Shown piece by piece: positions 20,414 through 47,757 of a stretch of 64,000 bases of DNA. The notes under the pieces were generated by a model. The model had not been told where the DNA came from, did no database searches, and worked only from the letters and a program-made list of their open reading frames with translations. Position 1 is the first letter of the stretch; every line of letters starts with the position of its first letter. Made by a program: the position numbers and the translations under genes. The stretch is from Dehalococcoidia bacterium (lineage in GTDB: Bacteria > Chloroflexota > Dehalococcoidia > SM23-28-2 > RBG-16-64-32): the NCBI GenBank assembly GCA_040882565.1, contig JBBEAZ010000024.1:301137-365136 (forward strand), in the 5' to 3' direction.

Positions 20414-20509
20414 CGTGCCATTACTCTACCGGGCACGCGCCGGTTTTCCACATTCGCCGTTTCCGGTTTCAGTTAAATCTCCCTATCGTCGGTCGCGTTT
20501 TGCCGAGGG

Positions 20510-20540
20510 TTGACGCCGCGTGTTCCAGTTTGCGTATACT
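20510..20540 (+). promoter_or_regulatory. candidate promoter TTGACG, 19 nt, TATACT upstream of the HTH-PASTA gene
   Basis: Hexamers present with a long spacer; CTGCA-N5-TGCAG palindrome and CAGGAGG RBS follow. Confidence 0.2.
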
Positions 20541-20568
20541 GCAGACCGTGCAGCTACAGGAGGTCGAT

Positions 20569-31149: not shown

Positions 31150-31460
31150 TGGCGCGCATCAAAAAACCCGTCCCCTGTAGGGACGGGCCATATGGCTCGC
31201 GGTACCACCCTGCTTTCCCCGCCGAGGCGGGGACGCTTGTGTCAGTGCACGGTCTCCGCCTTAGCGGAGAGTTATGCGCTTGCCTCTGCTAACGGGGGCT
31301 TCCGGCCGAGTCTACTCTCCGTAAGGATTTCGGTCGGCGGCTCGGGAGTGATCTTCCGGCGGCTTTTCCGCACCCCGCTCGCACTGTCCGGGGCTCGCTT
31401 GGCGGTGATTGGCTGCCGTACTCGTCTCCGTCATCGCTTTTCGGGCGTCTTCAGTTGTGC
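31150..31460 (-). promoter_or_regulatory. T-box riboswitch leader (Ile specifier, probable AUC in GGAAGAUCACUCC) with terminator hairpin and upstream promoter
   Basis: Minus-strand AGGGUGGUACCGCG T-box motif at about 31195-31215; terminator CCCGUCCCUACAGGGGACGGG plus UUUUUU directly before the GGAGG RBS; promoter TTGACG-18-TACACT near 31465-31494. Confidence 0.8.
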
Positions 31461-31605: not shown

Positions 31606-31785
31606 AACCGGGCGTTCACATTGTACGCGCTTGTCCGTAGGGCTTGCCCGTATGGGCGGCGGCCTTACAAGCGAAACCGCCGGGGTGCGCCCGACGGCAC
31701 ATTCTAGGTTATCAGACGCGCTCGCAGGCTGTCGATGTTCGTTGCTGGGCCGGGAACCGGCGGTTACACTGGCGACAAGTCGCTA

Positions 31786-33183
31786 ATGCAGTCACAAGCA
31801 CAGAGCCGCGGCGGCTTCCTCTTCAACGTCAACCTTGTCCTCGTGTCGCAGTTCGCCATCTACGGCCTGGCGTTTGTCTTGCGCGTGATCCTGGCGCGCG
31901 GCCTTGGTGACGACGGGCTCGGGACCTACTCGCTCTTCTTCGTCGCCGTGCTTGTGGCCGGCGGCGTGGGCAATCTGGGCATCGGCCTCGGCAACGTCTA
32001 TTTCCTGAACAAAGGTGATTACACTTACCGCACGCTGCTGTCCGGGAGCATCGCGGCATACGGGGTGATGTCGCTCGCCGGGTGGTTGTTGATCGGTGCG
32101 TGGGGACTGGCCAGCGGCGCCGAACTGTTCGTCTCGGACGGCACGTACTGGCTGTACGCCGCCGCCCTGCCGGCGGTGATCGGCTACGTCATCTTCACGT
32201 CGTTCCTGCACGGCTCAAGCCGCTTCTTCGCGCTGGCGGCGGTCGCCGTCGTTCAGGGCGGGATCGCTGCGATCGGCGCGGGCGCCCTGCTCGCGGCCGA
32301 TGATCTGACTGTCGGCAACGCGATCGCCGTGTGGTCCGTGTCGTTCCTGGCGGCGGATGTCGTCACGCTGGCCCTGATCGCGCCGGGGAACGTTGACTGG
32401 CGGCTCGTCGTGTCGCCGCCGTTGGCGGTACTCAAGGAACAGATCAAGTACGGGGCGCAGGGACAGGCCGCAAACATAGCCGCACTGTTCAACTACCGCC
32501 TCGACCAGTTCCTGGTCGCCGCGTTCGTCTCGACGGCGGGCGTCGGTCACTACACGGTCGCTGTCGGCCTCGCTGAGAGCGTCTGGTGGATTTCTTCCGC
32601 CGTATCGATCGTGCTGCTGCCACGGCTGACAGCGATGGAGAAGGATGACGCCGAGGAAGTGACGCCGATCATCGCGCGCAACACGCTCCTCATCAGCGTC
32701 GTCGCCGCCATCGCGCTCGTCGCCGTTTCGCCGATCGCGATCCAGGTGCTGTTCGGCGACGAGTTCTATCCCGAGGCGTTCCTGCCGCTCGTCCTGCTGA
32801 TGCCGGGCATCGTCGCGGCGAGCGCGACGCGGGTGCTGGGGAGCTACCTCTTCAGCCAGGGACGCATCATCTACACGACGTTCGCGACGTTCATCGCGCT
32901 GGGTGTAACGATCGGTGCGGACCTGGTCCTGATCCCGCTCATCGAGGTCGAAGGCGCGGCGATTGCCTCATCGATCGCCTACGTGGCCGCGCTGGCCGCG
33001 ACGGCCTACTGGTACCGGAGGCAGTCCGGGCGCAGCGCGTTCGACGCGCTGGTCTGGCGACCGGACGACATCGGCTATTACATGGCGGCGCTGCGGCGGT
33101 TACGCGACCGGGGGAAGACTGACTCAACGTCAGGAAGGGCGCCGGAGGCGGGCGAGGAAGACGAGCCAGACGAAGACGGGTAG
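31786..33183 (+). CDS. wzx: polysaccharide flippase (Wzx/MOP superfamily); ORF track from 31735
   Basis: about 12-14 TM helices, MOP-family spacing, acidic C-terminal tail. Confidence 0.7.
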   Translation: MQSQAQSRGGFLFNVNLVLVSQFAIYGLAFVLRVILARGLGDDGLGTYSLFFVAVLVAGGVGNLGIGLGNVYFLNKGDYTYRTLLSGSIAAYGVMSLAGWLLIGAWGLASGAELFVSDGTYWLYAAALPAVIGYVIFTSFLHGSSRFFALAAVAVVQGGIAAIGAGALLAADDLTVGNAIAVWSVSFLAADVVTLALIAPGNVDWRLVVSPPLAVLKEQIKYGAQGQAANIAALFNYRLDQFLVAAFVSTAGVGHYTVAVGLAESVWWISSAVSIVLLPRLTAMEKDDAEEVTPIIARNTLLISVVAAIALVAVSPIAIQVLFGDEFYPEAFLPLVLLMPGIVAASATRVLGSYLFSQGRIIYTTFATFIALGVTIGADLVLIPLIEVEGAAIASSIAYVAALAATAYWYRRQSGRSAFDALVWRPDDIGYYMAALRRLRDRGKTDSTSGRAPEAGEEDEPDEDG

Positions 33184-33951
33184 GGCGAGCTGCCGGCGGA
33201 GGCGCGAGGGCTGACGGGCGAGGCGGTACAGCCACTCGAGGCCAGTGCGGCGCATCCAGCGCGGGGCGCGGCTGGTAGCGCCGGAGATGAACGAAAACGA
33301 GCCTCCCTCGGCAATAGCCACCCGGACTCCCAACTCCGCCAGGTTCTCGGCAATCCATAGCTCCTGCTGCGGGAACCCCATCGCGACAAGAAGGACGTCG
33401 GGAGCGGCGGCGTTGATCGCGCGGACAACGGCGAACTTTTCGGCGCGAGCGAAATAGCCGTCCCGGAAGCCGGCGATGCGCAGTGAAGGCAGACGCCTGC
33501 GGATCTTCTCCTCCGCTCCGGCGACTTCATCAGCCGTACCACCAAGTAGGTAAACGCTGCGTCCGGCACGGGCGAGCGCCTCGAGCATCGTCCAGGTGAA
33601 GTCGACCCCGGCCATCGCCTCCGGCAAAGGGTGACGGAGCGCGGAGGGCCGCAGCGCAAGCGATCCGAGTGAGAGTGGCAGCTGGACGGTCGCGCGCAAC
33701 TTTCCACCGGCCAGCGAGAGGTAGTGCGCCGCCCAGAGGACGCCGACGCCGTCCGGCAGGCAGAGCGCAGCGCCGTTCAGGACATCGCGGACGCGTGTGT
33801 CCCGGTGAGCACGCGGCAAGAACTCTGAGTACGGCTTGACGACGTACGCCGTCCCTTGTTGTCCTGCGAGGCGCGCGACCTCTGCCGCTGCTTCCAGACG
33901 GGTGAGCGCGTGGAAACGGACGCCGAGCACCTCGACGTCCCGGGCGGTCAC
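33130..33951 (-). CDS. WecB/TagA/CpsF-family glycosyltransferase (GT26)
   Basis: Full-length GT26 pattern (GGTADEV, AMGFPQQELW, LEWLYRL). Confidence 0.8.
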   Translation of the reverse strand: MTARDVEVLGVRFHALTRLEAAAEVARLAGQQGTAYVVKPYSEFLPRAHRDTRVRDVLNGAALCLPDGVGVLWAAHYLSLAGGKLRATVQLPLSLGSLALRPSALRHPLPEAMAGVDFTWTMLEALARAGRSVYLLGGTADEVAGAEEKIRRRLPSLRIAGFRDGYFARAEKFAVVRAINAAAPDVLLVAMGFPQQELWIAENLAELGVRVAIAEGGSFSFISGATSRAPRWMRRTGLEWLYRLARQPSRLRRQLALPVFVWLVFLARLRRPS

Positions 33952-35171
33952 CGCCGGCCTCGGCGCCGCTGCCGAGGGGCGGTCGCCGGCTCGCCGCCCA
34001 GCACCCGGTCGAGACCACGGAACGCGATCTCGGCGATGTACTTCCCGCGGATGAGGGCGCGGCCGTTCTCACTGAGGACCCGCCAGCGCACGCCATCCGT
34101 GAGCAGCATGACGACTGCGTTCGCGATCTCGCGGTCGGAGCGGGCGACGATGAGATGGTCGCCCGGCACCACATCGAGCCCGCGCGCAGCTTGAAAGCTG
34201 GCGACAACAGGGACGCCACGCGCCAGGGCGTTCAGCACTTTGAGACGTGTGCCTCCGCCGGTCTTCGTCGCCTCAACGAACACTCGAGCACGAGTGTAGA
34301 GGGTCTCGGCGTCGTCCACAGGGCCGACAAAGTCGACGGCCTGACTGGTCGTCACGAGCTTGACCAGCGACGACGGCGCATCCCGCCCGGCGACGGCGAG
34401 TCGCGCGTCCGGAATCCTTTTCGTGATGTCGGGCAGCACGCGGGTGATGAATCGCTCGAGCCCGTCGACGTTCGGCTGCCAGCTCAGCGTGCCGAAATAC
34501 AGGATCAGAGGCTCCGACGTGGCGAAGGAGAGCGCCGGCTGTCCGAGGAGCGCCGGGTCGGGGACGTTGGGTAGGATGCTGAAGCGCTTGCTGTCGCTGG
34601 CCAGGGCCGCGAGCGACCTTCTGTCGTCTTCCGAGACGGCGAAGATGGTGTCGAACCGGTTGACGAGCGATGCCTCGTAGCGGCGCACGCGACCCGCCTC
34701 TCGCCGGAGGAGGAAGCCCCTGAGGCCGCTGCCGCGCTCGGCGGCCTCACGTTGCCAGATGCGGTACTCAGCGTTGTGCTCGTGGAGTACCTTGAGGCCG
34801 GAGAACCAACCGGGAAGGTACTGCGCGACGAGCCAGCCGTCGACAAAGACGGCGTCCGGGAGGCTGGACTTGAGCTGTTCCTCGACGAGGCGCCGCATCG
34901 CTGACGATTCGTTGCGTTCAACGCTGAGGGGGACGCGGCTGAGGTAGCTGCGCGCGAGGTTCAAGGGATTGCGGCGTCGGTCCAGGACAACTGTCTGCAC
35001 ACCTGCTTCGTTGGCCCACGCTTGCTGCTCCGGGGTCAGGGGCAGGCGCGTCAGAGCGATCGCGTTGATCTCGTGGCGGGCGCGGAGGTGCTGGAAGACG
35101 CTCCATGTCTTTAGGGCGGCGCCGCTCTCCGGCGGGTAGGGGAAGTGTGAGGTGAGAAAGAGGATGCGCAT
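33948..35171 (-). CDS. glycosyltransferase family 4 (GT-B)
   Basis: 407 aa; C-terminal GT4 sugar-donor binding motifs (E..K.GGGTRLKVLNALARGVPVV). Confidence 0.8.
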   Translation of the reverse strand: MRILFLTSHFPYPPESGAALKTWSVFQHLRARHEINAIALTRLPLTPEQQAWANEAGVQTVVLDRRRNPLNLARSYLSRVPLSVERNESSAMRRLVEEQLKSSLPDAVFVDGWLVAQYLPGWFSGLKVLHEHNAEYRIWQREAAERGSGLRGFLLRREAGRVRRYEASLVNRFDTIFAVSEDDRRSLAALASDSKRFSILPNVPDPALLGQPALSFATSEPLILYFGTLSWQPNVDGLERFITRVLPDITKRIPDARLAVAGRDAPSSLVKLVTTSQAVDFVGPVDDAETLYTRARVFVEATKTGGGTRLKVLNALARGVPVVASFQAARGLDVVPGDHLIVARSDREIANAVVMLLTDGVRWRVLSENGRALIRGKYIAEIAFRGLDRVLGGEPATAPRQRRRGRR

Positions 35172-35180
35172 GCAGGTGGG

Positions 35181-35912
35181 CTAGCGCGCACCCTTCTTCG
35201 TCATCACGAGAATGACGGTGCGAAGCAGGATCATCAGGTCGACGGTCAGAGGGTGGCGGCGCACGTAGCGCAGGTCGTAGCGGACCTTTTCGTAGTGCGT
35301 GAGGTCGGAGCGGCCGTTGACCTGCGCGAGGCCAGTCATGCCGGGCTTGACCTGGTGCCTCTGCCGGAACTGCGCCGGCCACGCTGCAACGATGTCCGGG
35401 ATGTCCGGACGCGGGCCGACGAGGGTCATGTCGCCCTTGACGACGTTCACGAGTTGCGGCAGTTCGTCGACGGTCGTCTTGCGCAGGGTCCAACCGATCG
35501 CAGTGGCGTGCTTCGGGCGGCCGCGCGGGCTAAGCAGGCGGTTCATCAGGTCGCCGGTCGGGAGCCGCTCGGCAAGATCGCTGCTGGCGCGGTTGTGGTG
35601 CATCGTGCGGAACTTGAGGAAACGAAACGCGCGGCTGTTGAGACCGATCCGGTCCTGCTTGATGAGCACGGGTCCCGGCGATTCGAGCTTGATCAGGGCG
35701 GCAGCGAGCGCAAACACCGGCCAGAGTATGCCGATCATCATCCCGCCCACGGTGATGTCGATCAGGCGCTTGACCGGCGAAGTTGGCCCGGTCTCGACGC
35801 GGTCGGGGATTTCTGGATACGACTCCGTAGCCTCCGGGACGGGCTCAGCCGACTGGCCGTTCGACCCGCTGCGCGAAGCCGGCGACACCAGTTCGTCGGC
35901 CGGGTCGCGCAC
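35181..35912 (-). CDS. initiating sugar phosphotransferase (small bacterial sugar transferase, WbaP/PglC type)
   Basis: Bacterial sugar transferase C-domain ([20 protein letters not shown]); single re-entrant helix N-terminus. Confidence 0.85.
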
Positions 35913-36868
35913 TAGCGTCGCGCTCCGGCGGCGATCAACTCGGCCACCTGCGGCGTGCGCATGTGCTCTACGAGCGCCTCTCGCCAGGGACGCAGCGTGA
36001 TACCGAGGACGGCTGCGCGGTTGTTTGCGAGCGTCGAGTCGACCGGCTTGCGGAAGGGTAGGTTGAAGTCAGCCTGGACAGCGCCTTCGGTTGGCACATC
36101 GATGCCGGCGAGCCGAAGGACTTCCCGGGCCCACTCAAGCCTCGAACAACCGTCGCCCCCACCGGCCAGGTGGTAGACGCCGTACTCGCCGGTCTCGATA
36201 AGCTGTGCGATTGCCGCGGCAAGGTCGTGTGTCCACGTTGGCGTAGCGATCTCGTCTGTGACCCCGCGGACGCGGCCGTCAGCAAACGCGCGCTCGACGA
36301 TCTTCTCCGGGAAACTGACCCGTCCTGGGCCATACACCCATGAGGTTCGGACAATGTAGTGCTTCTCGGTCTCCCCCCGCACAGCGATTTCACCTGCAAG
36401 CTTCGACCGGCCATATTCGTTGACCGGGTTCGGAGTGTCCTCTTCTTCGTACGGGGCCTTCCTCGTGCCCTCGAAGACTTCGTTGCTGCTGATCTGCACC
36501 ATCGCAGCTCCAATTTGCGCGGCGGCCCGTGCCACATTCGCCGCTCCCTGCGAATTCACTTGAAGGGCGCGCCCGGGGTCACGCTCGCAGCCAGTCGTGT
36601 CGGTCCAAGCCGCGCAGTTGATGACGATCTCCGGTTCTTCGCCCGTTACAGCCTCGGCGACAGCGTCTTCGTCCGCGATGTCTAACGGTTTAGCAACATT
36701 GTGTCTGTATCGACGCTCGTGGTGGGCGTAGAGGGAAAGGTAATTGTTCTTTCCTCCCTTACGCCACGCCGCGGCGCGGCCATCGGTCCCCAGTTCAAGC
36801 TGGAGTGCACGCCCCAATTGCCCGTCTGCCCCGGTGATCAGGATGCGGTGGCGCCATTCCATTTTCAC
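35912..36868 (-). CDS. rfbD: dTDP-4-dehydrorhamnose reductase with about 30-aa low-GC insertion near the N-terminus
   Basis: RmlD pattern ([25 protein letters not shown]) interrupted by [35 protein letters not shown]. Confidence 0.8.
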
Positions 36869-37320
36869 TTAACTACGCCTTGTTCAAGCTCCTCCTGAGT
36901 GTACTCGACCTGCTCATCCTTGAGATCCGGATCGTAGGGCGGGTCAGGATAGTTGACGAGCCAACCTTCTTCCGGACCGATGTTTTCGAGGCCGGTGGCC
37001 ACGTTCTTCGGGATGAAGAGGCGTTTGGGCGCAGCTGCGTCGAGGATATGTTCTTCACGGACCCATGTCGTCCTGCCACCGGATGCAGTCGGCTGGTAGA
37101 GGATGATCCGCATGCGGCCCTTGAGGCAGACGTAGCGCGCGGACCGAACACGGTGCAGGTGATAGCCCTTGAAAGCGCCAGGCGTCGCGGCGGAGAGATA
37201 GACCTCGGTCAGGTGGCCGTCGGGGCTCTTAAACAGCTCGATCAAGAACCCGTTCTCGTTGCCGCCGTGGTCTTTGGTGGTGACGCGCTTCGCGGACTCT
37301 TCGCTGACTCGGTCGATCAT
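36865..37320 (-). CDS. rfbC: dTDP-4-dehydrorhamnose 3,5-epimerase-family cupin (short form); ORF track to 37536
   Basis: RmlC-like cupin motifs (KGYHLHR, NYPDPPYDPDLKDE); 151 aa. Confidence 0.7.
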   Translation of the reverse strand: MIDRVSEESAKRVTTKDHGGNENGFLIELFKSPDGHLTEVYLSAATPGAFKGYHLHRVRSARYVCLKGRMRIILYQPTASGGRTTWVREEHILDAAAPKRLFIPKNVATGLENIGPEEGWLVNYPDPPYDPDLKDEQVEYTQEELEQGVVK

Positions 37321-37324
37321 CGCC

Positions 37325-38365
37325 CTAGTCTGGGCCACGTGGCTTCGCTTCAGCAAGCCGTTTGCCGTACTGCTTCTCGTAGTACGCTTGGAAATCGGCG
37401 TCGCGCACCTTCTCCCACCACCAGCGGTTCTGTAGATACCACTCGACTGTCTTTTCGAGCGTTGCCTTGAAGTCGTGGCGAGGGTGCCAGCCCAGCGCCT
37501 GAATCTTCGAGGAGTCCAAGAAGTAGCCGCGGTCATGGCCTGCGCGGTCCTCGACGAAACGAATGAGGCTGCGCGGCTTCTCCAGCAGGTCGAGGATCAT
37601 TTCCGCCACCTCAAGGTTCGGGCGCTGGTTACCGGCGCCAATGTTGTAGGCCTCGCCCGGCACGCCTTCGTGGAGCAGCAGGTCGAGCGCCTCGCAGTGG
37701 TCTTCGACGAAAAGCCTGTCACGGGTCTGCTGGCCGTCGCCGTAGATCGGCAAGGGCAGCCCCTGCATAGCGTTGGTCGCGCAGAGTGGCACGAACTTCT
37801 CGACGTGCTGGCGGGGGCCAACGTTATTTGCCGGTCGCGCGACGACGACCGGCAGGTCGTAGGTCTCGACGTAGGCGCGACACTGCATCTCACCACCGGC
37901 CTTGCTCGCTGAGTAGGGGCTACGCGGCTTGAAGACGTCGGTCTCGACGGAAGGCAGGTCCGTCGGCAGGACCTCGCCGTAGACCTCATCGGTCGAGATG
38001 TGCAGGAAGCGCTGGAGGTGCATGTTCTGCCGTGCCGCCTCAAGAAGAGTGTAGGTACCGAAGACGTCGGTCTGGATAAACGAGCCGGGCTCCATCAGCG
38101 AGCGGTCAACGTGCGTCTCCGCGGCGAAGTGAGCGACATAGTCGGCATCCGGCATCAGCTTGCCGACGACCACCGGATCACAGATGTCACCCTGGACGAA
38201 GCGGTAGCGCGGGTCATCAGCGACGTCGCGGAGGTTGTCGGGGTTCCCGGCGTAGGTCAGCTTGTCGAGATTGATGACGCTAGCATCTAGATGCTCCTGG
38301 AGGAGACGGACGATGAAGTTACTACCGATGAAGCCGCAACCGCCTGTGACCAGGTAAGTGGTCAC
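37325..38365 (-). CDS. rfbB: dTDP-glucose 4,6-dehydratase
   Basis: TGGCGFIGSN, YSASKAG, full RmlB pattern. Confidence 0.9.
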   Translation of the reverse strand: MTTYLVTGGCGFIGSNFIVRLLQEHLDASVINLDKLTYAGNPDNLRDVADDPRYRFVQGDICDPVVVGKLMPDADYVAHFAAETHVDRSLMEPGSFIQTDVFGTYTLLEAARQNMHLQRFLHISTDEVYGEVLPTDLPSVETDVFKPRSPYSASKAGGEMQCRAYVETYDLPVVVARPANNVGPRQHVEKFVPLCATNAMQGLPLPIYGDGQQTRDRLFVEDHCEALDLLLHEGVPGEAYNIGAGNQRPNLEVAEMILDLLEKPRSLIRFVEDRAGHDRGYFLDSSKIQALGWHPRHDFKATLEKTVEWYLQNRWWWEKVRDADFQAYYEKQYGKRLAEAKPRGPD

Positions 38366-39501
38366 TCGGGGATCTCGATCCTGGAGTGGTCGCCGAGCGT
38401 CAGCGCGTAACCCGCGCCGCCGCCGTGCCCACCCGCCAACTCGACATTTCGGCCGATCATGCTCTTAACGATGGGCCAGTGCAGGTCTTCGATCCGGCTG
38501 TCTTCCATGACGATACTGTCCTCGATGCGACAGCCCTTGATCCGGCAGCGCGCATCGATCGAAGTGTTTGGACCGACGTAGGAGTCGATCACTTCAGCGC
38601 CCGCGCCGATGATCAGCGGGCCGCGGAGGACGCTGTTCTCGATCCGCGCGCCGGCTTCGATGACGACCGGCTCGTACACCCGAGTCTTTTCGTCGATCTC
38701 GCCGTCGCGGCGGTCGCTGAGCGTGCCGAGGACCATACGGTTGGCGTTCAGGATGTCGTCCATCTTGCCGGTGTCTATCCAGTAACGGTCCATCACCTCG
38801 GCGCGGACCCGGGCGCCGCGGTCGATCAGACCCTGGATTGCGTCCGTGATCTCGAGTTCGCCGCGCCATGACGGCTTCAGCGTCGCGATGACGTCATGTA
38901 CGGCTGGGTCGAATATGTAGATGCCGATGACGGCAAGGTTTCCCATCGGCTCCTTCGGCTTTTCGACGATGCGTGTGACAACGTCGTCCGTTAGTTGGGC
39001 GATGCCGAAAGCTTCCGGGTTGGAGACGGGATGGAGGAGGATCTGCGAGCCTTGGCCCGCGGCGCAGTGCTTCTCGACGTACGGCTGGATGCCGCCGAGC
39101 ACGAAGTTGTCGCCCAGGTAGAGGACAAATGGTGAGTCGCCCAAGAACCCATGCGCGGTGCGTACAGCGTGGGCGATGCCGCCGGGCTTGTCCTGCTGAA
39201 CGATCGTGATGTTTGCGCCGAACTGGGAGCCATCGCCGACCGCTGCCATCACCTGCTCGGCGGTGTCGCCAACGACGACGCCGATGTCGGTGATGCCGCA
39301 CTCGACGAGTTGCTCGATCGCGTAGAAGAGCACCGGCTTGTTGGCGATCGGCACGAGTTGCTTGGCATTGGTGTAGGTGAAGGGGCGAAGGCGGCTGCCG
39401 ACGCCGCCGCTGAGGACGAGGCCCTTGAGCGCGCCATCGGCGGCGCCACTCGCGGACGGGGCTGCGGGATCCCGGCTGGTCGTCGTGGTCGTGGTTGCCA
39501 T
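38362..39501 (-). CDS. rfbA: glucose-1-phosphate thymidylyltransferase (long form with C-terminal left-handed beta-helix)
   Basis: LKGLVLSGGVGSRLRPFTYTNAKQL nucleotidyltransferase motif plus hexapeptide-repeat C-domain; about 25-aa N-terminal extension if ATG 39501 is used. Confidence 0.85.
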   Translation of the reverse strand: MATTTTTTSRDPAAPSASGAADGALKGLVLSGGVGSRLRPFTYTNAKQLVPIANKPVLFYAIEQLVECGITDIGVVVGDTAEQVMAAVGDGSQFGANITIVQQDKPGGIAHAVRTAHGFLGDSPFVLYLGDNFVLGGIQPYVEKHCAAGQGSQILLHPVSNPEAFGIAQLTDDVVTRIVEKPKEPMGNLAVIGIYIFDPAVHDVIATLKPSWRGELEITDAIQGLIDRGARVRAEVMDRYWIDTGKMDDILNANRMVLGTLSDRRDGEIDEKTRVYEPVVIEAGARIENSVLRGPLIIGAGAEVIDSYVGPNTSIDARCRIKGCRIEDSIVMEDSRIEDLHWPIVKSMIGRNVELAGGHGGGAGYALTLGDHSRIEIPE

Positions 39502-39503
39502 GA

Positions 39504-40418: not shown

Positions 40419-40520
40419 ATGCGCTCGCCGGGCGGAAATTCGGCCGGGTCTGGGCGGGTGTTTGAGCGCTCGTGCTAAGTGTCGTGAACATCGCGCCTTT
40501 GGTCAAGCGAGCATATAATT

Positions 40521-43289
40521 TTGCTTGTGGACGCCCCCCGCTACGAATCCCAGATTGACCTTACCAACGAAAACAACTCGCAGACGCTCGTCATCCTACT
40601 CACTGGCGAAAACAAGCGTGTGCTGGAGACAGGCCCCGCTACTGGCTACGTCACCCGCGAACTCCAGGCTCGAAGTTGCAAGGTCACCGGTCTAGAGATA
40701 GACGAGCAAGCTGCTGCCATCGCTGAGCCATTCTGCGAGCGGATGATAGTCGGCGACCTCGAGAAGCTGGATTTCGCGGAGACGTTCAAGGGCGAGCTGT
40801 TTGACGTCGCCATCTTTGGCGACGTGCTGGAGCACCTGGCTGACCCTTGGCGCGTGCTGCGGGAGATACGTCCGTTCCTGGCGCCGGGCGGGTATATCGT
40901 AGCGTCAGTGCCCAACGTGGCTCACGCCAGCCTGCGTCTCTCAGTTCTGCAGGGCGACTTCAAGTACACAGAACTGGGCCTGCTGGACCGCACGCACCTG
41001 CGCTTCTTCACCCGTGAATCACTGGGCGAACTGTTTCGTGACACCGGCTACTCGATCATAGAGTGGCGCCGAGTCGTCCTCGACCCCTTCGCCACGGAGC
41101 AAGGGCTGCGGGAGTCAGACTACCCGCCCTACCTCGCCCAAGCGATGCGCAATGACGAAGAAGCGCTCACCTACCAGTACGTGGTAACCGCCGTGGTCAG
41201 CGATACGCCTATCGCGTTCAACGGACACGACGAGGCAGCGGTGCCTCGGACGGCACCGCTAAGCTCCGCGATGGCAGCGATCCGCGCCGAGGAGAACCGA
41301 ATCCTCGCGCTGGAACGACGCATGGCCACCATCACCGAGGGCTGGCACTCGCTGACGCCGCGCCTCGAGGAGGCGGAGGCGAAGCTGCTCAAAATGACGC
41401 AGCACGCCGGCAACCTCGGTAATGACCTGAGCCGAATGCGCAACAGCATCGGCTGGCGGCTGCTCCAGATCGCGCGCACGCCGATTCGAGTGTTGGCGCC
41501 GTCGGGAAGCCCGCAACGCCTGCCGCTGATCGCCGTGCGACGCGCGATCGGCCTCGCGGCGCGGCGCGGCCCCATGGCGCTGGTCAAGAAGGTAGCGAAC
41601 GTGCGGCAGTGGCCGGCGGTGATGCGCAACCTGCGTCGGCCCCAGGTCCCGCACATGGACCTGAACGCCGCGTACCAGATCTGGCTCGAACGATACAGCA
41701 TCACGCCCGAGAGGGCGGACCGCCTGCGCATCGAGGCGCTGACGCTGACTTACCGGCCGCGCATCAGCATCGTCACGCCCGTGTACAACCCGGAGGTGAG
41801 CTGGCTGCGCGACGCCATCGACTCGGTCGCCGGGCAGGTTTACGACAACTGGGAACTGTGTCTGGCGGACGACGGTTCGACAAAGCCAGGTATCCGCGAA
41901 CTCCTCGAGGACTACGGCTCGCGCGACAACCGGATCAAGGTGTCGTTCGCGGAGCAGAACGCAGGCATTTCAGCGGCATCGAACAGGGCGCTGGCTATGG
42001 CGACCGGCGAGTACGTCGGCTTGCTCGATCACGACGACGTGCTGACGCCGGACGCGCTCTACGTGGTGGCCAAGCAGCTCAACGAGCGCCCAGAGATCGA
42101 CTATATATACAGCGACGAGGACAAGATGGAGCTGGACGGCGGCCGCCTGGACCCGTTCTTCAAGCCGGACTGGTCACCGGACACGCTCTACTGCCTGAAC
42201 TACGCCACGCACTTCAGCGTCTATCGCAAATCGGTGCTGGACGGGGTCGGCGGGTTCCGGCTGGGGTTCGAAGGAAGCCAGGACTGGGACTTGACGCTGC
42301 GGGTGACTGAGCTGACGGACCGCGTCGCCCACATTGCGCGACCGCTGTACTCTTGGCGTAAGGTGCCGGGCTCGGCGGCGGCTGCCGACGACGCGAAGGA
42401 GTATGCGCACGTGGCCGCGCGGAAGGCGATTGGCGAGGCGCTGGAGCGGCGTGGCACTCCCGGCCAGGTGCTGGACGGCCCATACAAGGGTTACTACAGG
42501 GTGAAGTACGACATCATCGGCGAGCCGAAGGTGGCGATCGTGATCCCGACTCGCGACGGGCTCGACATGCTGCGCAAGTGCATCGACAGCATCCGCACCA
42601 AGTCTAGCTACACAAACTACGAGATCATCATCATCAACAACCAGAGCAGCGACCCAGCGACGCTGAAATACTTCGACCAGTTCGGCGGCCGCGTGATCGA
42701 TTACCCGCACCCGTTCAACTACTCGGCACAGATGAACCTCGGCGTGCGCGAGGCCGGCGCCGAGTACGTGCTCCTCCTCAACAACGACACGATCGTCATG
42801 AACGACGACTGGATCGAGGCGATGCTGGAGTACGGGCAGCGGGCTGACGTTGGCGCCGTCGGCGCGCGCCTGCTGTTCCCGGACGGCCGCGTGCAGCACG
42901 AGGGGGTCTACGTGGGTTGCGGCGGTGGGCTGGCGGGCCACATCGACCACAAAGGCTACTATGCCCTCGGTGAGTGCGTGCTCAACGTCTCGGCCGTGAC
43001 GGCAGCCTGCATGCTCGTGAAGGCGAGCGTTTACCAAGAGGTCGGCGGGCTCGACGAGGAACTGAATGTCGCCTACAACGACGTTGACTTCTGCCTCAGG
43101 CTGCGCGCTGCCGGATACGAGGTCATCTACACACCCCACGCCCGGCTAGTGCACCGCGAGGGCGGTACGCGCGGCCACCGCCACCCGGACGGCAACGAGA
43201 GCCTCTTCCGCAGCCGCTGGCCCAACTACCGCGACCCCTACTACAACCCTAACTTCGACGTCGACCATCCGTTTGCGCTGAAACTTTAG
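40521..43289 (+). CDS. trifunctional fusion: class I SAM methyltransferase, coiled-coil, two GT2 glycosyltransferase domains (WsaE-like chain elongation/terminator enzyme)
   Basis: MT motif I VLETGPATGY and ADPWRVL/PGGY post-motifs; about 60-aa heptad region; GT2 domain 1 ISIVTPVYN..DDGS..DHDD; GT2 domain 2 VAIVIPTRD..NNQS..NNDT; TTG start abuts a TATAAT box so the true start is uncertain. Confidence 0.8.
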   Translation: MLVDAPRYESQIDLTNENNSQTLVILLTGENKRVLETGPATGYVTRELQARSCKVTGLEIDEQAAAIAEPFCERMIVGDLEKLDFAETFKGELFDVAIFGDVLEHLADPWRVLREIRPFLAPGGYIVASVPNVAHASLRLSVLQGDFKYTELGLLDRTHLRFFTRESLGELFRDTGYSIIEWRRVVLDPFATEQGLRESDYPPYLAQAMRNDEEALTYQYVVTAVVSDTPIAFNGHDEAAVPRTAPLSSAMAAIRAEENRILALERRMATITEGWHSLTPRLEEAEAKLLKMTQHAGNLGNDLSRMRNSIGWRLLQIARTPIRVLAPSGSPQRLPLIAVRRAIGLAARRGPMALVKKVANVRQWPAVMRNLRRPQVPHMDLNAAYQIWLERYSITPERADRLRIEALTLTYRPRISIVTPVYNPEVSWLRDAIDSVAGQVYDNWELCLADDGSTKPGIRELLEDYGSRDNRIKVSFAEQNAGISAASNRALAMATGEYVGLLDHDDVLTPDALYVVAKQLNERPEIDYIYSDEDKMELDGGRLDPFFKPDWSPDTLYCLNYATHFSVYRKSVLDGVGGFRLGFEGSQDWDLTLRVTELTDRVAHIARPLYSWRKVPGSAAAADDAKEYAHVAARKAIGEALERRGTPGQVLDGPYKGYYRVKYDIIGEPKVAIVIPTRDGLDMLRKCIDSIRTKSSYTNYEIIIINNQSSDPATLKYFDQFGGRVIDYPHPFNYSAQMNLGVREAGAEYVLLLNNDTIVMNDDWIEAMLEYGQRADVGAVGARLLFPDGRVQHEGVYVGCGGGLAGHIDHKGYYALGECVLNVSAVTAACMLVKASVYQEVGGLDEELNVAYNDVDFCLRLRAAGYEVIYTPHARLVHREGGTRGHRHPDGNESLFRSRWPNYRDPYYNPNFDVDHPFALKL

Positions 43290-46158
43290 CGCGCTGCCGC
43301 TGGTAGGTCGCGTACAACGCTCCGCCAAGCACCAGCACCACGACCGTTGCGATGCTAATGCGCTGGCCCCAGACGTACTCGTCCGGACGGAACTGCATCA
43401 TCACCTCGTGCTCGCCGGCGGGCACGGCGATAACCTGAAGATCGTTGTCCCCGCGCAACACCTTCGCACCCTTGCCGTCGATCTTCACCTGCCAGCCGTC
43501 GTCGTAGCGCTCGCTGAGCAAAAGCCAGCCCCCAGCGCTAAAGTTCGTGCTTACCGCGAGGCTATCGCCGTCGTTGTCGGTGACCTCGGCCTCGAACGTG
43601 CCTTCTGCGGTCGTCGCCTCGGCGGTCGGAACGTCGTCTTCGGCGAACACAACCGACTGCGCCGGGTCGAAGCCGGCATCGGTGATGCGGATGAGAGCAT
43701 CGTCACGCGTCGGGACGACTTCCGACGCGCCAACGCCCCACGCGAGCGGCCTGGCGGCGGTGACCTCGTACACCATGCCGTCTGGCCCGTCGTAGACCTC
43801 CTTGGCCCAGTCACCGGGTGATCTCAGGGCGCGGTGCGTGAGCGTCCCATCGACAGGCGAGCCATCCACAATAAGCCGATTGACAGGGTTGGGGCTTTGC
43901 GGAGCGCCCCAGATGATCAGCGGCCTTTCCTTGGTCGCCGTCGGAGCCTCTATCACGATAGTTGGCGCCCCCGCGTATCCGAAGGGCAATTCAACACGCT
44001 GCCACGATCCGTCGGGCATTGAGCCGGCGTCGAAACTCGCCGAGGAGATCTCATGGCCCTGCGGCGCCTCAAGTACACGGATCGTTGCCTCGGTCCCGGG
44101 CGGTAGCCATCCTCCGTTGCTGACGAAGAACTCGACCGCGTCGGTTTCCGGCGGAACCCCGAATTGGAAGGTCTGGGTAACGTCACCGTACGCCGTGTAG
44201 GGTGTCTCCGCTGGGAGGAATTCGCTTACTGATGTCCATAACCCGGACGGGGTCGTGACGATGTACTTGACGCCGAGCAGCGACAGCAGGTTGCGGTTGA
44301 CCTCGCCGCGGTTTGGCGCGACACGGACGTAACCGAACGCGATGGCGCGGCCGGTGTCGTCGTCAGACATCATCGGGTCGAGGTAGTCGAGATAGGCTTC
44401 GTTGCGGTAGTGGTCGTACCCGATGATGGTGTTCAGCCCATAAACGTTGGGCGTGTTGCCGGGCATCACGTGGTCGCGGCCGTCTGACGCGATGGGCGCG
44501 ATGCGGAAGAAGCCTCCTTGTTCCTGAAGAAACTCGATCAGGGGAGTAGTCGGATAGAGGTCATCTTTATCGACTGTGGCGTTGTAGCCGCTACCAAAAG
44601 CGAAGAGGTCGAGGAAGGTCAGCGCCAGGAGAAAGGCCGCGGCCTGTCGCGCGAGCAGCGGCCTCAGGCAGGCCACCACCACCGTCGCCGCACCGAGCAC
44701 GATGAACGCGAGTTGCCGGTGGAAGGGCGTGCCGATCATCGTCCACGGAGCGGTGACGACACCATGCCCCTCGGTGATCCAGCGGAACGACTGGCCCTGG
44801 CCTCGGTCTATGTAAAGGACCGCGACAGCCATTAGCGCCACGGTTGCGACACCGGCGGTGACGGCCGCAAGTTGCCGGCGCTCACGCGCTGACGTTCTCG
44901 AATCGAGCAGCGCCGCAAGGCCTGCTGGGGCGACAAGAGCGACGGCTAGGTTGATCACAAAGAGCCACCGCCCCGCGGTGACCTGCTTGATGCCTGGAAG
45001 GTGTGCCAGCTCCTTGAGCGGCGGGATGCCGTAGACCTGCCCCGCTGCGAAGACGATTAGCGCTAGGCTGAACCAGCCCAGCCAGTTGCGGCGCAGGTGC
45101 CAGAGGCCAGCGATCGTGAGCGGGGCAATCGTTATCCCGATGTAGCCGAGCGCTTCGGGAGGATTGCCGAACGGCCCGAACCAGAAGTTCTCCGTGCCCC
45201 AGTAATCGGGAAAAAGGTTCGTCCAGGCGGTCTCCAGCGGCAAGTCGCCGAGGCCGACAGCGCGTCCGGTCTGGTAGCTACTGCCCGCAGCGCTCGATAC
45301 CGACGGAATGAGCGAATACGCCGCGAGCAGCATCCCGACGAGCCCAGCCGCCACGTAGCCCGCCGTGTCAGTGGCGGCTTCGCGGAAGCGCCGCGCATAG
45401 ACCGAAGGAGCCAGCCGCGTGGCACCGTAGAGCACCAGCACAGCACCGGTAACGATCCACGCCGGCACGTAGCCCAGGTATATCTCGATCGCGATGCAGG
45501 CGGCAGGTATCAAGAGATACGCGGGATTCCGCACTTCACGGAAACGTTCGAAGCCAAAAAGCATGAGCGGCACAACGCCAAGGCTGGCGGGCAGGTGAGA
45601 ATGCCCAAGCCAGACAATGAAGTGCCCGTTGAATGAGTAAATGACCGCACCGAGGACGCAGGCAAGCCAGGGGTATTTGAACTGCCAGAGTAGCAAGTAC
45701 ATCGCGAGGCCGGCCACCAGGATGATGATCAAGTGGTAGGCCGTATTGGCGACCTCGAAGGGCAATGCTTCGTAGACGTAGGCCGGCGGGTAAAATTGCA
45801 TCCCCAGCGCGTCGACGAGGAACGTATTGCGGTCGCTCGTGATGTAGTCGTCCTGCCACCAGGAGTCGCCGGTCCCGTTGTAGAGCGCGTAACGCCTGGG
45901 GTACAAGATGTCCGCGTCGTCGGTCTGGTAGGGGTTCTCAGGTGAGAAACCGTCGGGCGCGGACGCCTTCCAGGGATAGCTGTTGTACATCAAGTCGGCA
46001 GGCGAGATGATGCGCTGCTGGAGTGTCACCTGCCAGAAGAAGGCCGCGATGAACAGCATCAACACGCAAGCAGCGGCGACATGTGGGCACCGGAGAGCGG
46101 TCAGGCGGTCGAGGGGGCTACGGCGGGCCGGGGTGGTGGTTTCGCCCGCGGGCGTCAA
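43249..46158 (-). CDS. YfhO-family GT-C fold membrane glycosyltransferase-like protein
   Basis: 969 aa; about 12 N-terminal TM helices, large extracytoplasmic beta-rich domain, final C-terminal TM; architecture of YfhO (PF09586). Confidence 0.7.
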   Translation of the reverse strand: MTPAGETTTPARRSPLDRLTALRCPHVAAACVLMLFIAAFFWQVTLQQRIISPADLMYNSYPWKASAPDGFSPENPYQTDDADILYPRRYALYNGTGDSWWQDDYITSDRNTFLVDALGMQFYPPAYVYEALPFEVANTAYHLIIILVAGLAMYLLLWQFKYPWLACVLGAVIYSFNGHFIVWLGHSHLPASLGVVPLMLFGFERFREVRNPAYLLIPAACIAIEIYLGYVPAWIVTGAVLVLYGATRLAPSVYARRFREAATDTAGYVAAGLVGMLLAAYSLIPSVSSAAGSSYQTGRAVGLGDLPLETAWTNLFPDYWGTENFWFGPFGNPPEALGYIGITIAPLTIAGLWHLRRNWLGWFSLALIVFAAGQVYGIPPLKELAHLPGIKQVTAGRWLFVINLAVALVAPAGLAALLDSRTSARERRQLAAVTAGVATVALMAVAVLYIDRGQGQSFRWITEGHGVVTAPWTMIGTPFHRQLAFIVLGAATVVVACLRPLLARQAAAFLLALTFLDLFAFGSGYNATVDKDDLYPTTPLIEFLQEQGGFFRIAPIASDGRDHVMPGNTPNVYGLNTIIGYDHYRNEAYLDYLDPMMSDDDTGRAIAFGYVRVAPNRGEVNRNLLSLLGVKYIVTTPSGLWTSVSEFLPAETPYTAYGDVTQTFQFGVPPETDAVEFFVSNGGWLPPGTEATIRVLEAPQGHEISSASFDAGSMPDGSWQRVELPFGYAGAPTIVIEAPTATKERPLIIWGAPQSPNPVNRLIVDGSPVDGTLTHRALRSPGDWAKEVYDGPDGMVYEVTAARPLAWGVGASEVVPTRDDALIRITDAGFDPAQSVVFAEDDVPTAEATTAEGTFEAEVTDNDGDSLAVSTNFSAGGWLLLSERYDDGWQVKIDGKGAKVLRGDNDLQVIAVPAGEHEVMMQFRPDEYVWGQRISIATVVVLVLGGALYATYQRQRAKVSAQTDGRRRS

Positions 46159-46985
46159 ACCGCCTCCATGTAGTGGGGCACCGTCGCCATGTACTCGGCG
46201 ACGACCCGCTTGGCCGGGCCGTCAGCGGCGAGGCGGCCATGGTCCAGCCAAATGGCGCGGTCGCAGAAGCTAGTGATCGTCTCGGCGCTGTGAGAGACGA
46301 CCACAATCGTTATGCCGCGCTGTTTGAACTCGTGCATACGCTCATGGCACTTCTCCTGGAAGAACGCGTCCCCCACCGACAGCACCTCGTCCACGAGGAG
46401 GACTTCCGGATTGCTGTGGACGGCGACGGCGAAACCTAGACGAACGTACATGCCGGAGGAGTAGCGCTTGACCGGCATGTCGATAAATTCCTGCAGCTCG
46501 GCGAACTCGACGATCGCCGGGAACTGCTCGTTGATCTCACGCTCCGACATGCCGAGAATCGAGCCGTTAAGGTGCACGTTCTCACGGCCGGTAAGGTCGG
46601 GGTGGAAGCCAGCGCCCAGCTCGATAAGCGGCGAGACGCGGCCGCCGACGAACACCTGCCCCTCGCTCGGCGCGGTGACCCCGGCAATGAGCTTGAGCGC
46701 AGTACTCTTGCCGCTGCCGTTGCGGCCGATGATGCCCAACGTTTCGCCCCGCGCCACGGTGAAACTGACGTCCGTGAGCGCGCGAAACTCATCGCCCCAG
46801 GGCTTACGCGAGATGATGGCGGTGGCGAACTCGCGCAGGGTACGGCCGTCCTTCAGGAAGAAGCGCTTGGTGACGTCACGGAATTCGATCTCGGGCTCAG
46901 GATCGAGCGGATTAGATGCTGTCTGCAAATCCCTTTTCCATCTTCTTGAACAGGTAATAGCCGCCAAGGAACGTGACAACCGCAA
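46155..46985 (-). CDS. wzt: ABC transporter ATP-binding protein, Wzt/TagH type without C-terminal carbohydrate-binding module; start possibly TTG near 46928
   Basis: Walker A GRNGSGKST, signature YSSGM, Walker B LLVDEVL; only 276 aa. Confidence 0.85.
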   Translation of the reverse strand: MRLSRSLAAITCSRRWKRDLQTASNPLDPEPEIEFRDVTKRFFLKDGRTLREFATAIISRKPWGDEFRALTDVSFTVARGETLGIIGRNGSGKSTALKLIAGVTAPSEGQVFVGGRVSPLIELGAGFHPDLTGRENVHLNGSILGMSEREINEQFPAIVEFAELQEFIDMPVKRYSSGMYVRLGFAVAVHSNPEVLLVDEVLSVGDAFFQEKCHERMHEFKQRGITIVVVSHSAETITSFCDRAIWLDHGRLAADGPAKRVVAEYMATVPHYMEAV

Positions 46986-47757
46986 TCACAACGCCCAGCA
47001 AAACTTTCTCCACGTCCGGGTCCTCCCCGTAAAGCATCGTCCGGCGATAGGCGTCAATGAACACGGCATTGGGGTTGAGGTCGAAGAGGATCTCGTATTT
47101 GTCCGGAACGATATCCACCGGGTAGATCACCGGCGTCAGATAGAACCAGAGCGTGAGCGCCACACCAACGAGGAACCGGACGTCATGGAAGTAGAGGTTG
47201 AGCGCGGCCAGCGGGTATGTGAGCCCGAGCAGGAAGATGAGGTGGATGCCGAAGAGGAGGGGCAGCCAGTACGACGTGGCCTCGGGCAACCGGCCATAGT
47301 AGGCCATCAGCGCGCCGAGAATCACCAGCCCGAAGAACAGGTCGACTAGTTTCGTGAAGACGGCCGCCGTGGGCAAGACCTCGCGCGGGAAGTAGACCTT
47401 CGTGACGAGCGTCGAGGCATTCACGACGGAGTCGGTCCCGGACGACAGCGCGTTCGAGAAGAAGAGCCAGGGAATGAGGCCGACGAAGAGGAAGAGCGGA
47501 TACGGCAGGTCACCGGCCGGTTGCACCCGCAAGATCGTGGAGAATACGAACGAGAGGATGATCATCTGGCTGAGCGGGTTCACGAACGCCCAGGCATAGC
47601 CGAGGACCGATTGTTTGTACTGGCCGCGCAGGTGGCGGATCGTCATGTGCCAGAGCAGGTCGCGCCGGCGCCAGAAGCCGAGCAAGTTCGCGGCCATGTC
47701 GAACGGGCCGGTGGCAGTGGAAAGCGGTTGCCTGCGGAGGGATTGGGATCGAGCCAT
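46912..47757 (-). CDS. wzm: ABC-2 type polysaccharide export permease
   Basis: 281 aa, 6 TM helices, ABC-2 family pattern. Confidence 0.8.
   Translation of the reverse strand: MARSQSLRRQPLSTATGPFDMAANLLGFWRRRDLLWHMTIRHLRGQYKQSVLGYAWAFVNPLSQMIILSFVFSTILRVQPAGDLPYPLFLFVGLIPWLFFSNALSSGTDSVVNASTLVTKVYFPREVLPTAAVFTKLVDLFFGLVILGALMAYYGRLPEATSYWLPLLFGIHLIFLLGLTYPLAALNLYFHDVRFLVGVALTLWFYLTPVIYPVDIVPDKYEILFDLNPNAVFIDAYRRTMLYGEDPDVEKVLLGVVIAVVTFLGGYYLFKKMEKGFADSI

Follow-up and report, generated by a model that had tools for sequence, protein, structure and literature searches.

Introduction

The S-layer glycan (slg) cluster of Geobacillus stearothermophilus NRS 2004/3a encodes an ATP-binding cassette (ABC) transporter-dependent rhamnan pathway, in which a phosphoglycosyltransferase (PGT) of the Bac_transf type serves as primer, one or more small GT2 glycosyltransferases act as adaptor rhamnosyltransferases, a methyltransferase and two GT2 modules are combined in one protein, and the rml genes lie within the cluster among packed and overlapping open reading frames (ORFs) (PMC2943079). 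The combined protein, WsaE, is trifunctional (PMC2943079), and the cluster further comprises WsaP, WsaC/D, WsaF, Wzm/Wzt, RmlABCD and WsaB, an O-oligosaccharyltransferase of the Wzy_C type. The transporter, the PGT, the small GT2, the combined methyltransferase-GT2-GT2 protein, the rml genes and the packed, overlapping ORFs recur in the subject of this study, a 16-kb locus (positions 31735-47757) from a Dehalococcoidia bacterium (Chloroflexota; contig JBBEAZ010000024.1). The locus lies in a stretch of 64,000 nucleotides, referred to as the window.

The group A Streptococcus carbohydrate (GacA-L) and related streptococcal and lactococcal rhamnans also resemble the locus, as polyrhamnose is synthesized in the cytoplasm, exported by an ABC transporter and given its side chain outside the membrane by a GT-C enzyme, from a lipid-linked donor that a Wzx-type protein, GacK, flips (PMC8035078). 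The group A carbohydrate ends up linked to the wall (PMC8035078), and its GacI/J/K/L proteins place a Wzx-type flippase and a GT-C beside an ABC-exported rhamnan (PMC8035078). In such multi-component systems a GT-A enzyme loads undecaprenyl phosphate, a flippase follows, and a GT-C decorates the exported polymer (PMC8035078, PMC11127046). For O antigens exported by ABC transporters, attachment of side chains by a GT-C is described as a common pathway (PMC11127046).

A third likeness is found in O-antigen synthesis, where Klebsiella pneumoniae O7 ORF6, Escherichia coli O9a WbdD/WbdA and K. pneumoniae O12 WbbB represent systems with a terminator, a spacer and two glycosyltransferase modules, as in a single protein, that operate with Wzm/Wzt (PMC11231755). 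ORF6 of O7 is a rhamnan polymerase/terminator of methyltransferase-coiled coil-GT2-GT2 architecture (PMC11231755). O7-type systems carry a cap-reading carbohydrate-binding module (CBM) on Wzt, and O7 adds methyl-phosphate by use of an extra kinase domain; in every characterized terminated O-polysaccharide system Wzt has a CBM (PMC11231755). Finally, the YfhO family (PF09586) includes YfhO of Bacillus subtilis and Staphylococcus aureus, Lmo1079 of Listeria, PgfM1/M2 of Streptococcus mutans and PgtC2 of Streptococcus pyogenes, which share a polytopic membrane part with an acidic first outer loop and, at the C-terminus, a sizeable extracytoplasmic domain before the final transmembrane helix. All characterized members transfer a single sugar from an undecaprenyl-phosphate-sugar to lipoteichoic acid (LTA), wall teichoic acid (WTA) or Ser/Thr-rich proteins (PMC8035078; bioRxiv 10.1101/2024.05.05.592596).

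Results and Discussion

A predicted pathway for a rhamnose-type wall polysaccharide

The 16-kb locus most likely serves to build, export and then decorate a rhamnose-type surface polysaccharide. The reading we prefer, to which we give somewhat better than even odds, is that a rhamnose-type (6-deoxyhexose) polysaccharide associated with the wall is made by an ABC-transporter-dependent route and decorated outside the membrane by YfhO, in a peptidoglycan-bearing member of the Dehalococcoidia. A sequence-only reading of this DNA had placed 13 genes within 31735-47757, and ORFs were found for all of them, distributed over both strands, at those positions or a few codons off. All 13 had the high GC at third codon positions that is typical of genuine genes at the 65% GC of this DNA, and a separate gene caller, applied to metagenome contigs of identical sequence, gave the same gene set. 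When examined with Pfam and NCBIfam, the domain assignments of the sequence-only reading were upheld, except for that of "RfbC". Eight of the genes form one run on the minus strand, in the order GT2, RmlA, RmlB, cupin, RmlD, PGT, GT4 and TagA/WecG, and Wzm, Wzt and YfhO form a second; wzx and the methyltransferase-GT2-GT2 fusion are on the plus strand.

In the pathway proposed, long-form RmlA, RmlB, an RmlC-like cupin and RmlD would supply dTDP-L-rhamnose, as judged by homology, with the stereochemistry presumed for the cupin. The small PGT would prime undecaprenyl phosphate, and the TagA-like, GT4 and WbbL-like GT2 enzymes would build a short linker or adaptor. The chain would be polymerized by the two GT2 modules of the fusion, after the model of WsaE and K. 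pneumoniae O7 ORF6, and O-methylated, probably as a cap, by the N-terminal methyltransferase carried on a helical spacer. Export of the lipid-linked polymer would be by Wzm/Wzt. YfhO, translationally linked to wzt and with CBM-like outer domains, would then draw on a polyprenyl-phosphate-linked donor at the outer face to attach side-chain sugar(s) to the polymer after export, and the Wzx-type protein may flip this donor in the manner of GacK for GacL; this part of the scheme is drawn from sister loci and from precedent in the family. A donor-loading GT-A and an LCP-type peptidoglycan ligase would be encoded elsewhere, outside of the locus.

Comparison with described systems

The parallel that the sequence-only reading had drawn to S-layer glycan and rhamnan clusters was borne out by the WsaE-type methyltransferase-GT2-GT2 protein, Wzm/Wzt, the dTDP-rhamnose genes and the occurrence of fusion homologues joined to WsaF. 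The fusion was likened to WsaE by architecture and not by direct sequence comparison. Relative to slg, the window locus is without WsaB, without a WsaF gene and without a nearby S-layer gene among the scanned ORFs (here and below, window-wide negatives refer to the ORFs scanned in the 64-kb window, which were pre-selected by a codon-position GC filter). It has additional genes for a TagA-like protein, a GT4 enzyme, Wzx and YfhO; its RmlC is non-canonical, its RmlA is of the long form, and it resides in a Chloroflexota host of 65% GC. The Gac system differs in that GacL is of the PMT_2 type and not YfhO, that GacI/GacJ (a GT-A and its partner) are encoded in the Gac locus and absent from the window, that its polymerases are separate GT2/GT4 proteins without a methyltransferase terminator, and that its initiator is the WecA-type GacO and not a PGT. 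Compared to O7, the fusion has no visible kinase-like domain and a short spacer (~55 residues plus a helical bundle), and Wzt consists of the nucleotide-binding domain only. The window YfhO shares the family traits listed above, and its sister-locus orthologues occur with GtrB/CsbB-like GT-A enzymes; it differs from the Firmicutes members by very low identity, by its position inside a rhamnan/ABC-exporter operon and by the lack of a local GT-A. Its acceptor is presumably the rhamnan rather than a teichoic acid or protein.

The claim that the combination represents an undescribed variant pathway was too strong, as all parts can be placed in known families and the scheme as a whole follows direct precedents; what is new is the arrangement. 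Rhamnans made by ABC-dependent routes, polymerase-terminators in one protein and decoration by a GT-C after export are all known. New are the setting in uncultured Dehalococcoidia, the presence of a YfhO-family GT-C in the slot beside the fusion, the PGT/TagA/GT4/Wzx arm that is attached to the locus, the pairing of a polymerase of the terminator type with a Wzt lacking a CBM, and a divergent short RmlC. As to whether the locus is an annotated O-antigen cluster in a described genome, only generic annotation of metagenome-assembled genomes (MAGs) was found ("glycosyltransferase", "YfhO family protein"); for both YfhO and the fusion, protein copies that are identical or nearly so are deposited at NCBI, on contigs of up to 373 kb, as "MAG: YfhO family protein" and "MAG: glycosyltransferase" from Dehalococcoidia bacterium.

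The methyltransferase-GT2-GT2 fusion

The 922-aa fusion (40521-43289, plus strand) was delineated by Pfam, AlphaFold2 (AF2) modeling and Foldseek. Pfam assigned a methyltransferase to residues 28-180 and GT2 modules to 416-604 and 669-880 (two PF00535 stretches). The AF2 model (mean pLDDT 84) displayed a methyltransferase at 20-226, a disordered stretch, a helix at 253-307 and GT-A domains at 415-644 and 669-900. Methyltransferase identity of the N-terminal domain was confirmed by PF13489 (E 4e-22), by other Pfam families of S-adenosylmethionine (SAM)-dependent methyltransferases and by PDB 3cc8 (E 5e-36, TM-score 0.80); G38 and G42 of its glycine-rich motif were invariant in 30 homologues. 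Of the coiled coil that had been read into the protein, a long predicted helix (253-307) and a helical region reaching to ~407 were recovered: the 55-residue helix is broken by Pro, is followed by further helices to 407, and lies in a spacer modeled at pLDDT 40-73. Foldseek matched the model to the two-module GT-A polymerases K4CP and heparosan synthase 2 and to the TDP-rhamnose transferase RmlT.

Homologues of the fusion number more than 1000 and were found in Chloroflexota, Actinomycetota, Cyanobacteria, Bifidobacterium and Firmicutes, with lengths of ~720 to 1580 aa that reflect in part longer spacers and in part extra C-terminal glycosyltransferase domains. Full-length homologues of ~40% identity carry an additional WsaF-family rhamnosyltransferase domain. 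In two of the related Chloroflexota loci, L003 (4361-8065) and L008, the orthologous fusion is 1234 aa compared to 922, and its N-terminal 264 residues were unaligned at the tblastn threshold; the methyltransferase/spacer part thus varies much faster than the GT2 modules. Fast variation of the spacer is expected if spacer length sets chain length. The architecture of the fusion is that of WsaE and K. pneumoniae O7 ORF6, and by analogy to these its chemistry would be that of a polymerase/terminator. The adjacent 304-aa GT2 (39504-40418, minus strand), a soluble WbbL/WsaD-like protein (PF00535; TIGR01556 "rhamnosyltransferase" E 4.5e-19, under cutoff) without a transmembrane helix by hydropathy, adjoins the fusion gene in L003-L008, L036 and L037 and is a candidate adaptor rhamnosyltransferase.

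The start of the fusion was noted to be GTG 40527 in the NCBI copy (920 aa). A perfect TATAAT (40514-40519, plus strand) is present in the 102-nt divergent intergenic region and ends 2 nt before TTG 40521 and 8 nt before GTG 40527; with this element so near to the start codons, the fusion mRNA may be leaderless.

The YfhO-family glycosyltransferase

The 969-aa product of 43249-46158 (minus strand) was assigned to the YfhO family of GT-C membrane glycosyltransferases by PF09586 (74.6 bits vs. a cutoff of 28.5). Hydropathy indicated ~10-13 transmembrane helices, of which the first spans residues 27-45 and the last 934-952, and the alignment revealed a conserved D80-D81 in the first outer loop after the first of these. 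Residues ~630-925 form C-terminal beta-sandwich domains. The C-terminus weakly matches PgfM1/PgfM2 models over 60-70 residues only. By Foldseek, a low-confidence model of the protein had ArnT (5ezm, a GT-C) as top match and a C-terminal part resembling CBM6/BcsB, which is indicative only. Sequence search found no solved structure of a YfhO protein.

The sequence-only reading had put YfhO in the position of a WaaL-like O-oligosaccharyltransferase. This proposal was not supported, as characterized members of the family transfer single sugars and sister loci pair YfhO with a GtrB-like GT2 (with an MprF-like flippase as well in L006 and L036). YfhO is instead most likely a post-export side-chain glycosyltransferase and not a WaaL-like ligase.

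Conservation and sister loci

Synteny was found to be maintained at 50-80% amino-acid identity in many independent Chloroflexota contigs (>15), and the cluster is therefore a selected unit and not a chance assembly. Full gene order was detected at about 60-80% amino-acid identity in L003, L005, L007, L008 and L014, which are Chloroflexota MAGs and metagenome contigs. Among the features kept in relatives are wzm-wzt-yfhO with the 4-nt overlap and the convergent pairs fusion/yfhO and wzx/tagA. The latter pair was present in 16 related loci, that is, in every contig reaching the tagA position (15 from the metagenome scan plus L037). Genes upstream of wzx in the relatives were unrelated ones and included no Wzy and no ligase. 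The conserved order together with these unrelated upstream genes indicates that the locus has been kept as one functional unit, the edge of which is marked by wzx.

A scan of GTDB genomes with the YfhO alignment returned three Chloroflexota MAG loci only, and no cultured relative. In L006 and L036 an orthologous YfhO (47-50% identity) lies beside the fusion as a convergent pair, and in L011 a distant YfhO (23%) lies beside it. A GT2 near YfhO, of 312-313 aa in L006/L036 and 310 aa in L011, ends in two C-terminal transmembrane helices; these proteins are GtrB-like, with matches to models of the AglJ/PpgS/PgfS type. Variable sugar-nucleotide genes are nearby in all three loci (amino-sugar genes in L011), and a protein with an MprF-like flippase domain accompanies YfhO in L006 and L036, and is missing from L011. 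Other GT-C families were detected in further loci: a DUF6311 membrane protein downstream of the fusion, after an extra methyltransferase-GT4 gene, in L037 (16221-17606); a PMT_2 protein elsewhere in the locus, on the other side of the fusion, in L039 (1788-3470); and a PMT_2/DUF2142 GT-C convergent with the fusion, plus a GtrB-like GT2 and an MprF-like flippase, in L040 (7794-9281). The GT-C beside the fusion (YfhO, DUF6311 or PMT_2/DUF2142) thus looks like a swappable module.

Flipping of polyprenyl-phosphate sugars is usually ascribed to GtrA, Wzx or MATE proteins. The MprF-like proteins (LPG_synthase_TM, TIGR00374) that adjoin GtrB-like GT2s in L006 (4784-5848), L036 (6882-7925) and L040 (12156-13217) are candidate flippases for such sugars. 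The GT-A, flippase and GT-C of these sister loci constitute a classical three-component transmembrane (side-chain) glycosylation system. The contigs with this GtrB-like module (L006, L036 and L040) end before the PGT-GT4-TagA-Wzx region.

The dTDP-rhamnose genes and the cupin

RmlA (38362-39501), RmlB (37325-38365) and RmlD (35912-36868), all on the minus strand, exceeded the NCBI curated equivalog cutoffs. The long-form RmlA, a glucose-1-phosphate thymidylyltransferase that carries a C-terminal left-handed beta-helix, scored 415.8 bits with TIGR01208 (cutoff 320); RmlB, the dTDP-glucose 4,6-dehydratase, scored 441.7 bits with TIGR01181 (cutoff 365); and RmlD, the dTDP-4-dehydrorhamnose reductase, scored 237 bits with TIGR01214 (cutoff 224) and matched PF04321 (E 3e-74). 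The start of rmlD is GTG 36868 or ATG 36862.

The 151-aa cupin in the rmlC slot (36865-37320, minus strand) had been named RfbC. It is not a canonical RmlC, as neither PF00908 nor TIGR01221 was matched; its membership in the RmlC superfamily stood, at the profile level only, and it is best described as a divergent short epimerase of that superfamily. Another 151-aa cupin, which matches TIGR01221 (2e-14), fills the rmlB-rmlD slot in a group of sister loci, and the two slot-equivalent proteins were found to be homologous by phmmer (1e-13 to 1e-15). A joint profile of both cupin types matched solved RmlC structures (3ejk, 3.6e-21; 1ep0, 4e-11) and also matched 3-/5-monoepimerases and CapF. His54 and Tyr129, corresponding to the catalytic His and Tyr, were invariant. 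Slot replacement, homology and profile matches together tie the cupin to the RmlC superfamily, and dTDP-L-rhamnose is the likely product of the Rml set, with its stereochemistry expected to be set by the cupin. An assignment of the cupin as a 3,4-ketoisomerase of the FdtA/QdtA type was rejected, its structure matches being far weaker (E 3e-5 to 5e-2) than those to RmlC.

Two relatives display breaks in these genes: the cupin of L014 (13098-13711) was recovered in two overlapping tblastn segments, and rmlA of L037 (7912-9013) is split into two ORFs. Both breaks are frameshifts from assembly error or pseudogenization in those MAGs.

The exporter, Wzx and the PGT-GT4-TagA arm

Wzm (46912-47757, minus strand) is an ABC-2 type permease with six hydrophobic segments (PF01061 E 1.4e-14; galactan-export Wzm 5.7e-17), and Wzt (46155-46928, minus strand) is the nucleotide-binding subunit (PF00005). 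Matches of Wzt to the TagH/Wzt models of NCBIfam span residues 33-272 of the ORF, 276 aa at its maximum length, such that the protein is the nucleotide-binding domain only. A CBM was absent from Wzt in the window and, likewise, in all related loci in which wzt was seen (247-279 aa).

The Wzx flippase that had been recognized beside the ABC exporter is present (31735-33183, plus strand), and this pairing has a precedent in GacK of group A Streptococcus (PMC8035078). The protein belongs to the MOP superfamily (PF13440 E 4e-13; MurJ/PF03023 1e-8), has ~9-12 transmembrane segments by hydropathy and is a candidate flippase for a lipid-linked donor. MurJ itself was rejected as an identity (28.5 bits vs. 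an equivalog cutoff of 235). The arm consists of three genes on the minus strand. The small monotopic polyprenyl-phosphate PGT of the Bac_transf family (35181-35912; PF02397 E 7.5e-54), the predicted initiating enzyme, has one hydrophobic helix only (residues 58-76, by hydropathy). The GT4 enzyme, of GT-B fold (33948-35171), matches PF13692 and PF00534, with TIGR03087 as the best NCBIfam model (E 2e-44, under cutoff). The TagA/WecG-family (GT26) glycosyltransferase (33130-33951) matches PF03808 (E 5.9e-54) and TIGR00696 (137 bits vs. a cutoff of 69). No Wzy polymerase or chain-length regulator was detected in the locus, in the scanned window ORFs or upstream of wzx in the relatives.

Weighing of alternative readings

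Several points weigh against the pathway preferred here. No GtrB/CsbB-like membrane-anchored GT-A was detected in the locus or in the scanned window ORFs, and a profile of the sister-locus GtrB-like GT2s gave no match on the 373-kb or 191-kb contigs with the window's genes among the 120 matches listed of more than 7900. The AF2 model of YfhO was poor (pLDDT 59, from an 11-sequence alignment). The canonical Lys is missing from the cupin, which could act as a 3- or a 5-epimerase, the product then being a different 6-deoxyhexose. With Wzt lacking a CBM, the cap-and-recognize logic is conjectural, and methylation might instead be of internal residues. The conserved PGT-GT4-TagA-Wzx arm resembles a Wzx-dependent repeat-unit module without Wzy and could be a donor pathway.

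The missing GT-A and the arm are accommodated by an arrangement of two chains, in which the rhamnan is started by an unlinked enzyme of the WecA/TagO type, lengthened by the WbbL-like GT2 and the fusion and exported by Wzm/Wzt, while PGT, TagA and GT4 build an undecaprenyl-diphosphate (Und-PP)-linked oligosaccharide that is flipped by Wzx and joined en bloc to the rhamnan by YfhO outside the membrane. Dual-chain systems have been described (PMC8035078), and the arrangement would resemble the Lactococcus lactis rhamnan/pellicle or the decorations on the polysaccharide antigen (EPA) of enterococci. PGT, GT26, GT4 and Wzx are the gene set of a Wzx-dependent repeat-unit pathway, with best NCBIfam matches to exopolysaccharide families; the arm and wzx always occur together in relatives, no local Wzy is available to polymerize the flipped unit, many fusion loci of other phyla are without a local initiating PGT, and with all donor-side parts local the missing GtrB-like GT2 would be explained. 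Against this, the use of an Und-PP-oligosaccharide as donor is not known for any enzyme of the YfhO family, and YfhO orthologues in sister loci pair with GT-A enzymes of the monosaccharide type. PGT, GT4 and TagA moreover share a single, translationally packed operon with the rml genes, which would suit the rhamnan's own primer, and the Geobacillus PGT WsaP is known to prime an ABC-exported rhamnan (PMC2943079). We consider the two-chain arrangement unlikely, at about one chance in five. The same low weight is given to the broader proposition that YfhO acts en bloc on an Und-PP glycan, either grafting the Wzx-flipped PGT/TagA/GT4 oligosaccharide onto the rhamnan or ligating the rhamnan to an acceptor. 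If true, this proposition in either form would give the YfhO family a donor class and a role that are both new, and would make of Wzx and the ABC exporter a hybrid assembly line for which Wzy, WaaL and a local GT-A are not required.

The model of the sequence-only reading, in which YfhO replaces a WaaL/WsaB-type enzyme and moves the methyl-capped rhamnan from Und-PP to an S-layer or surface protein or to the wall, appears improbable. Neither a Wzy_C-type/O-antigen ligase (PF04932) nor an LCP gene was detected in the locus or in the scanned window ORFs, yfhO overlaps and is co-transcribed with wzt, and the PgfM1 and PgtC2 proteins, to the first of which the YfhO C-terminus has its weak match, glycosylate proteins (bioRxiv 10.1101/2024.05.05.592596). 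Yet the protein glycosylation known for YfhO enzymes is by single sugars from undecaprenyl-phosphate donors and not by polymers, the sister-locus GT-C comes with a GtrB-like GT-A and a flippase that would be superfluous for a ligase, the scanned window ORFs include no gene for an S-layer or SLH protein, and Wzx is left unexplained. The Actinomycetota-type fusion loci L010 and L038 have no GT-C within 10 kb, which indicates that a GT-C is not an obligatory end-step. Equally improbable, in our estimate, is that YfhO (with Wzx) is a mere neighbor of the rhamnan genes and acts on some other acceptor, for example Ser/Thr-rich membrane proteins or another wall polymer, even though the acceptors of characterized members are LTA, WTA and disordered regions of proteins, and the GT-A partner is often encoded at an unlinked site (PMC8035078; bioRxiv 10.1101/2024.05.05.592596). 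The convergent yfhO-fusion pair and the wzt-yfhO overlap persist across lineages while the surrounding modules change, and different GT-C families fill the same slot beside the fusion gene; this persistent linkage and interchangeable slot point to a functional link of the GT-C to the polymer.

Implications

To our knowledge, almost nothing is known of the cell envelope chemistry of Dehalococcoidia and other uncultured Chloroflexota. The locus predicts a Gram-positive-style rhamnose-rich wall polysaccharide in these organisms, based on a conserved and testable gene set. It also extends the range of WsaE/O7-ORF6-type proteins and of the adjoining slot with its exchangeable GT-C families, and the related loci in which wzt was seen (all of Gram-positive type) pair the fusion with a Wzt lacking the cap-reading module. 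The questions raised are how a capped chain would be selected for export without a CBM and how YfhO obtains its donor without a GtrB-like neighbor; neither overturns current models.

Gene junctions, locus borders and host

Eight genes, from the GT2 gene to tagA, had been described as coupled by 4-nt ATGA overlaps. None of the junctions proved to be ATGA; they consist of GTGA or TTGA overlaps, a 1-nt overlap and gaps of 2-9 nt. GTGA overlaps join GT4/tagA and rmlA/rmlB, and cupin/rmlD is either a GTGA overlap or, with ATG 36862 as start, a 2-nt gap. One nucleotide is shared by rmlD and the PGT gene, and gaps separate PGT/GT4 (9 nt), rmlB/cupin (4 nt) and GT2/rmlA (2 nt). In the second run, wzt/yfhO is a TTGA overlap, and wzt, the ORF of which is open from 46985, likely starts at TTG 46928 with a 17-nt overlap with wzm, as in relatives. 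The tight packing fits two minus-strand operons. A promoter and terminator scan gave matches no more common than in shuffled sequence.

The 3' ends of the convergent genes overlap by 54 nt for wzx/tagA (33130-33183) and by 41 nt for fusion/yfhO (43249-43289). In relatives, as estimated from tblastn spans, the wzx/tagA ends overlap in most loci and are tens of nucleotides apart in some; for fusion/yfhO, the called genes show a 17-nt overlap in L003, L005 and L006 and a 34-nt gap in L036.

The left flank is formed by tRNA-Pro(CGG) and ileS, encoding isoleucyl-tRNA synthetase, and the right flank by a short-chain dehydrogenase/reductase (SDR) and a GFO-type oxidoreductase. With housekeeping genes on both flanks, the borders first assigned to the locus are correct. 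Horizontal acquisition beside tRNA-Pro was considered and found to be unsupported, since the GC content and codon-position GC of the locus are the same as elsewhere in the window. Further genes of the window encode a Mur ligase (1429-2790), a class B penicillin-binding protein (17250-19472) and a protein with helix-turn-helix and PASTA domains (20500-21228). From these three genes the organism makes peptidoglycan and has a cell wall. Dehalococcoides is wall-less, in contrast to this peptidoglycan-bearing lineage.

A T-box leader was detected between tRNA-Pro and the ileS start (31134), at 31176-31443 on the minus strand. Its score of 90.5 bits (E 2e-20) is just below the Rfam gathering score of 93, and it was missed by the default scan. 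The region includes a hairpin with a T-run at 31189-31165 (minus strand), an 11-bp GC-rich terminator-like hairpin ~30 nt 5' of the start codon, and the leader is probably an attenuator that senses tRNA-Ile.

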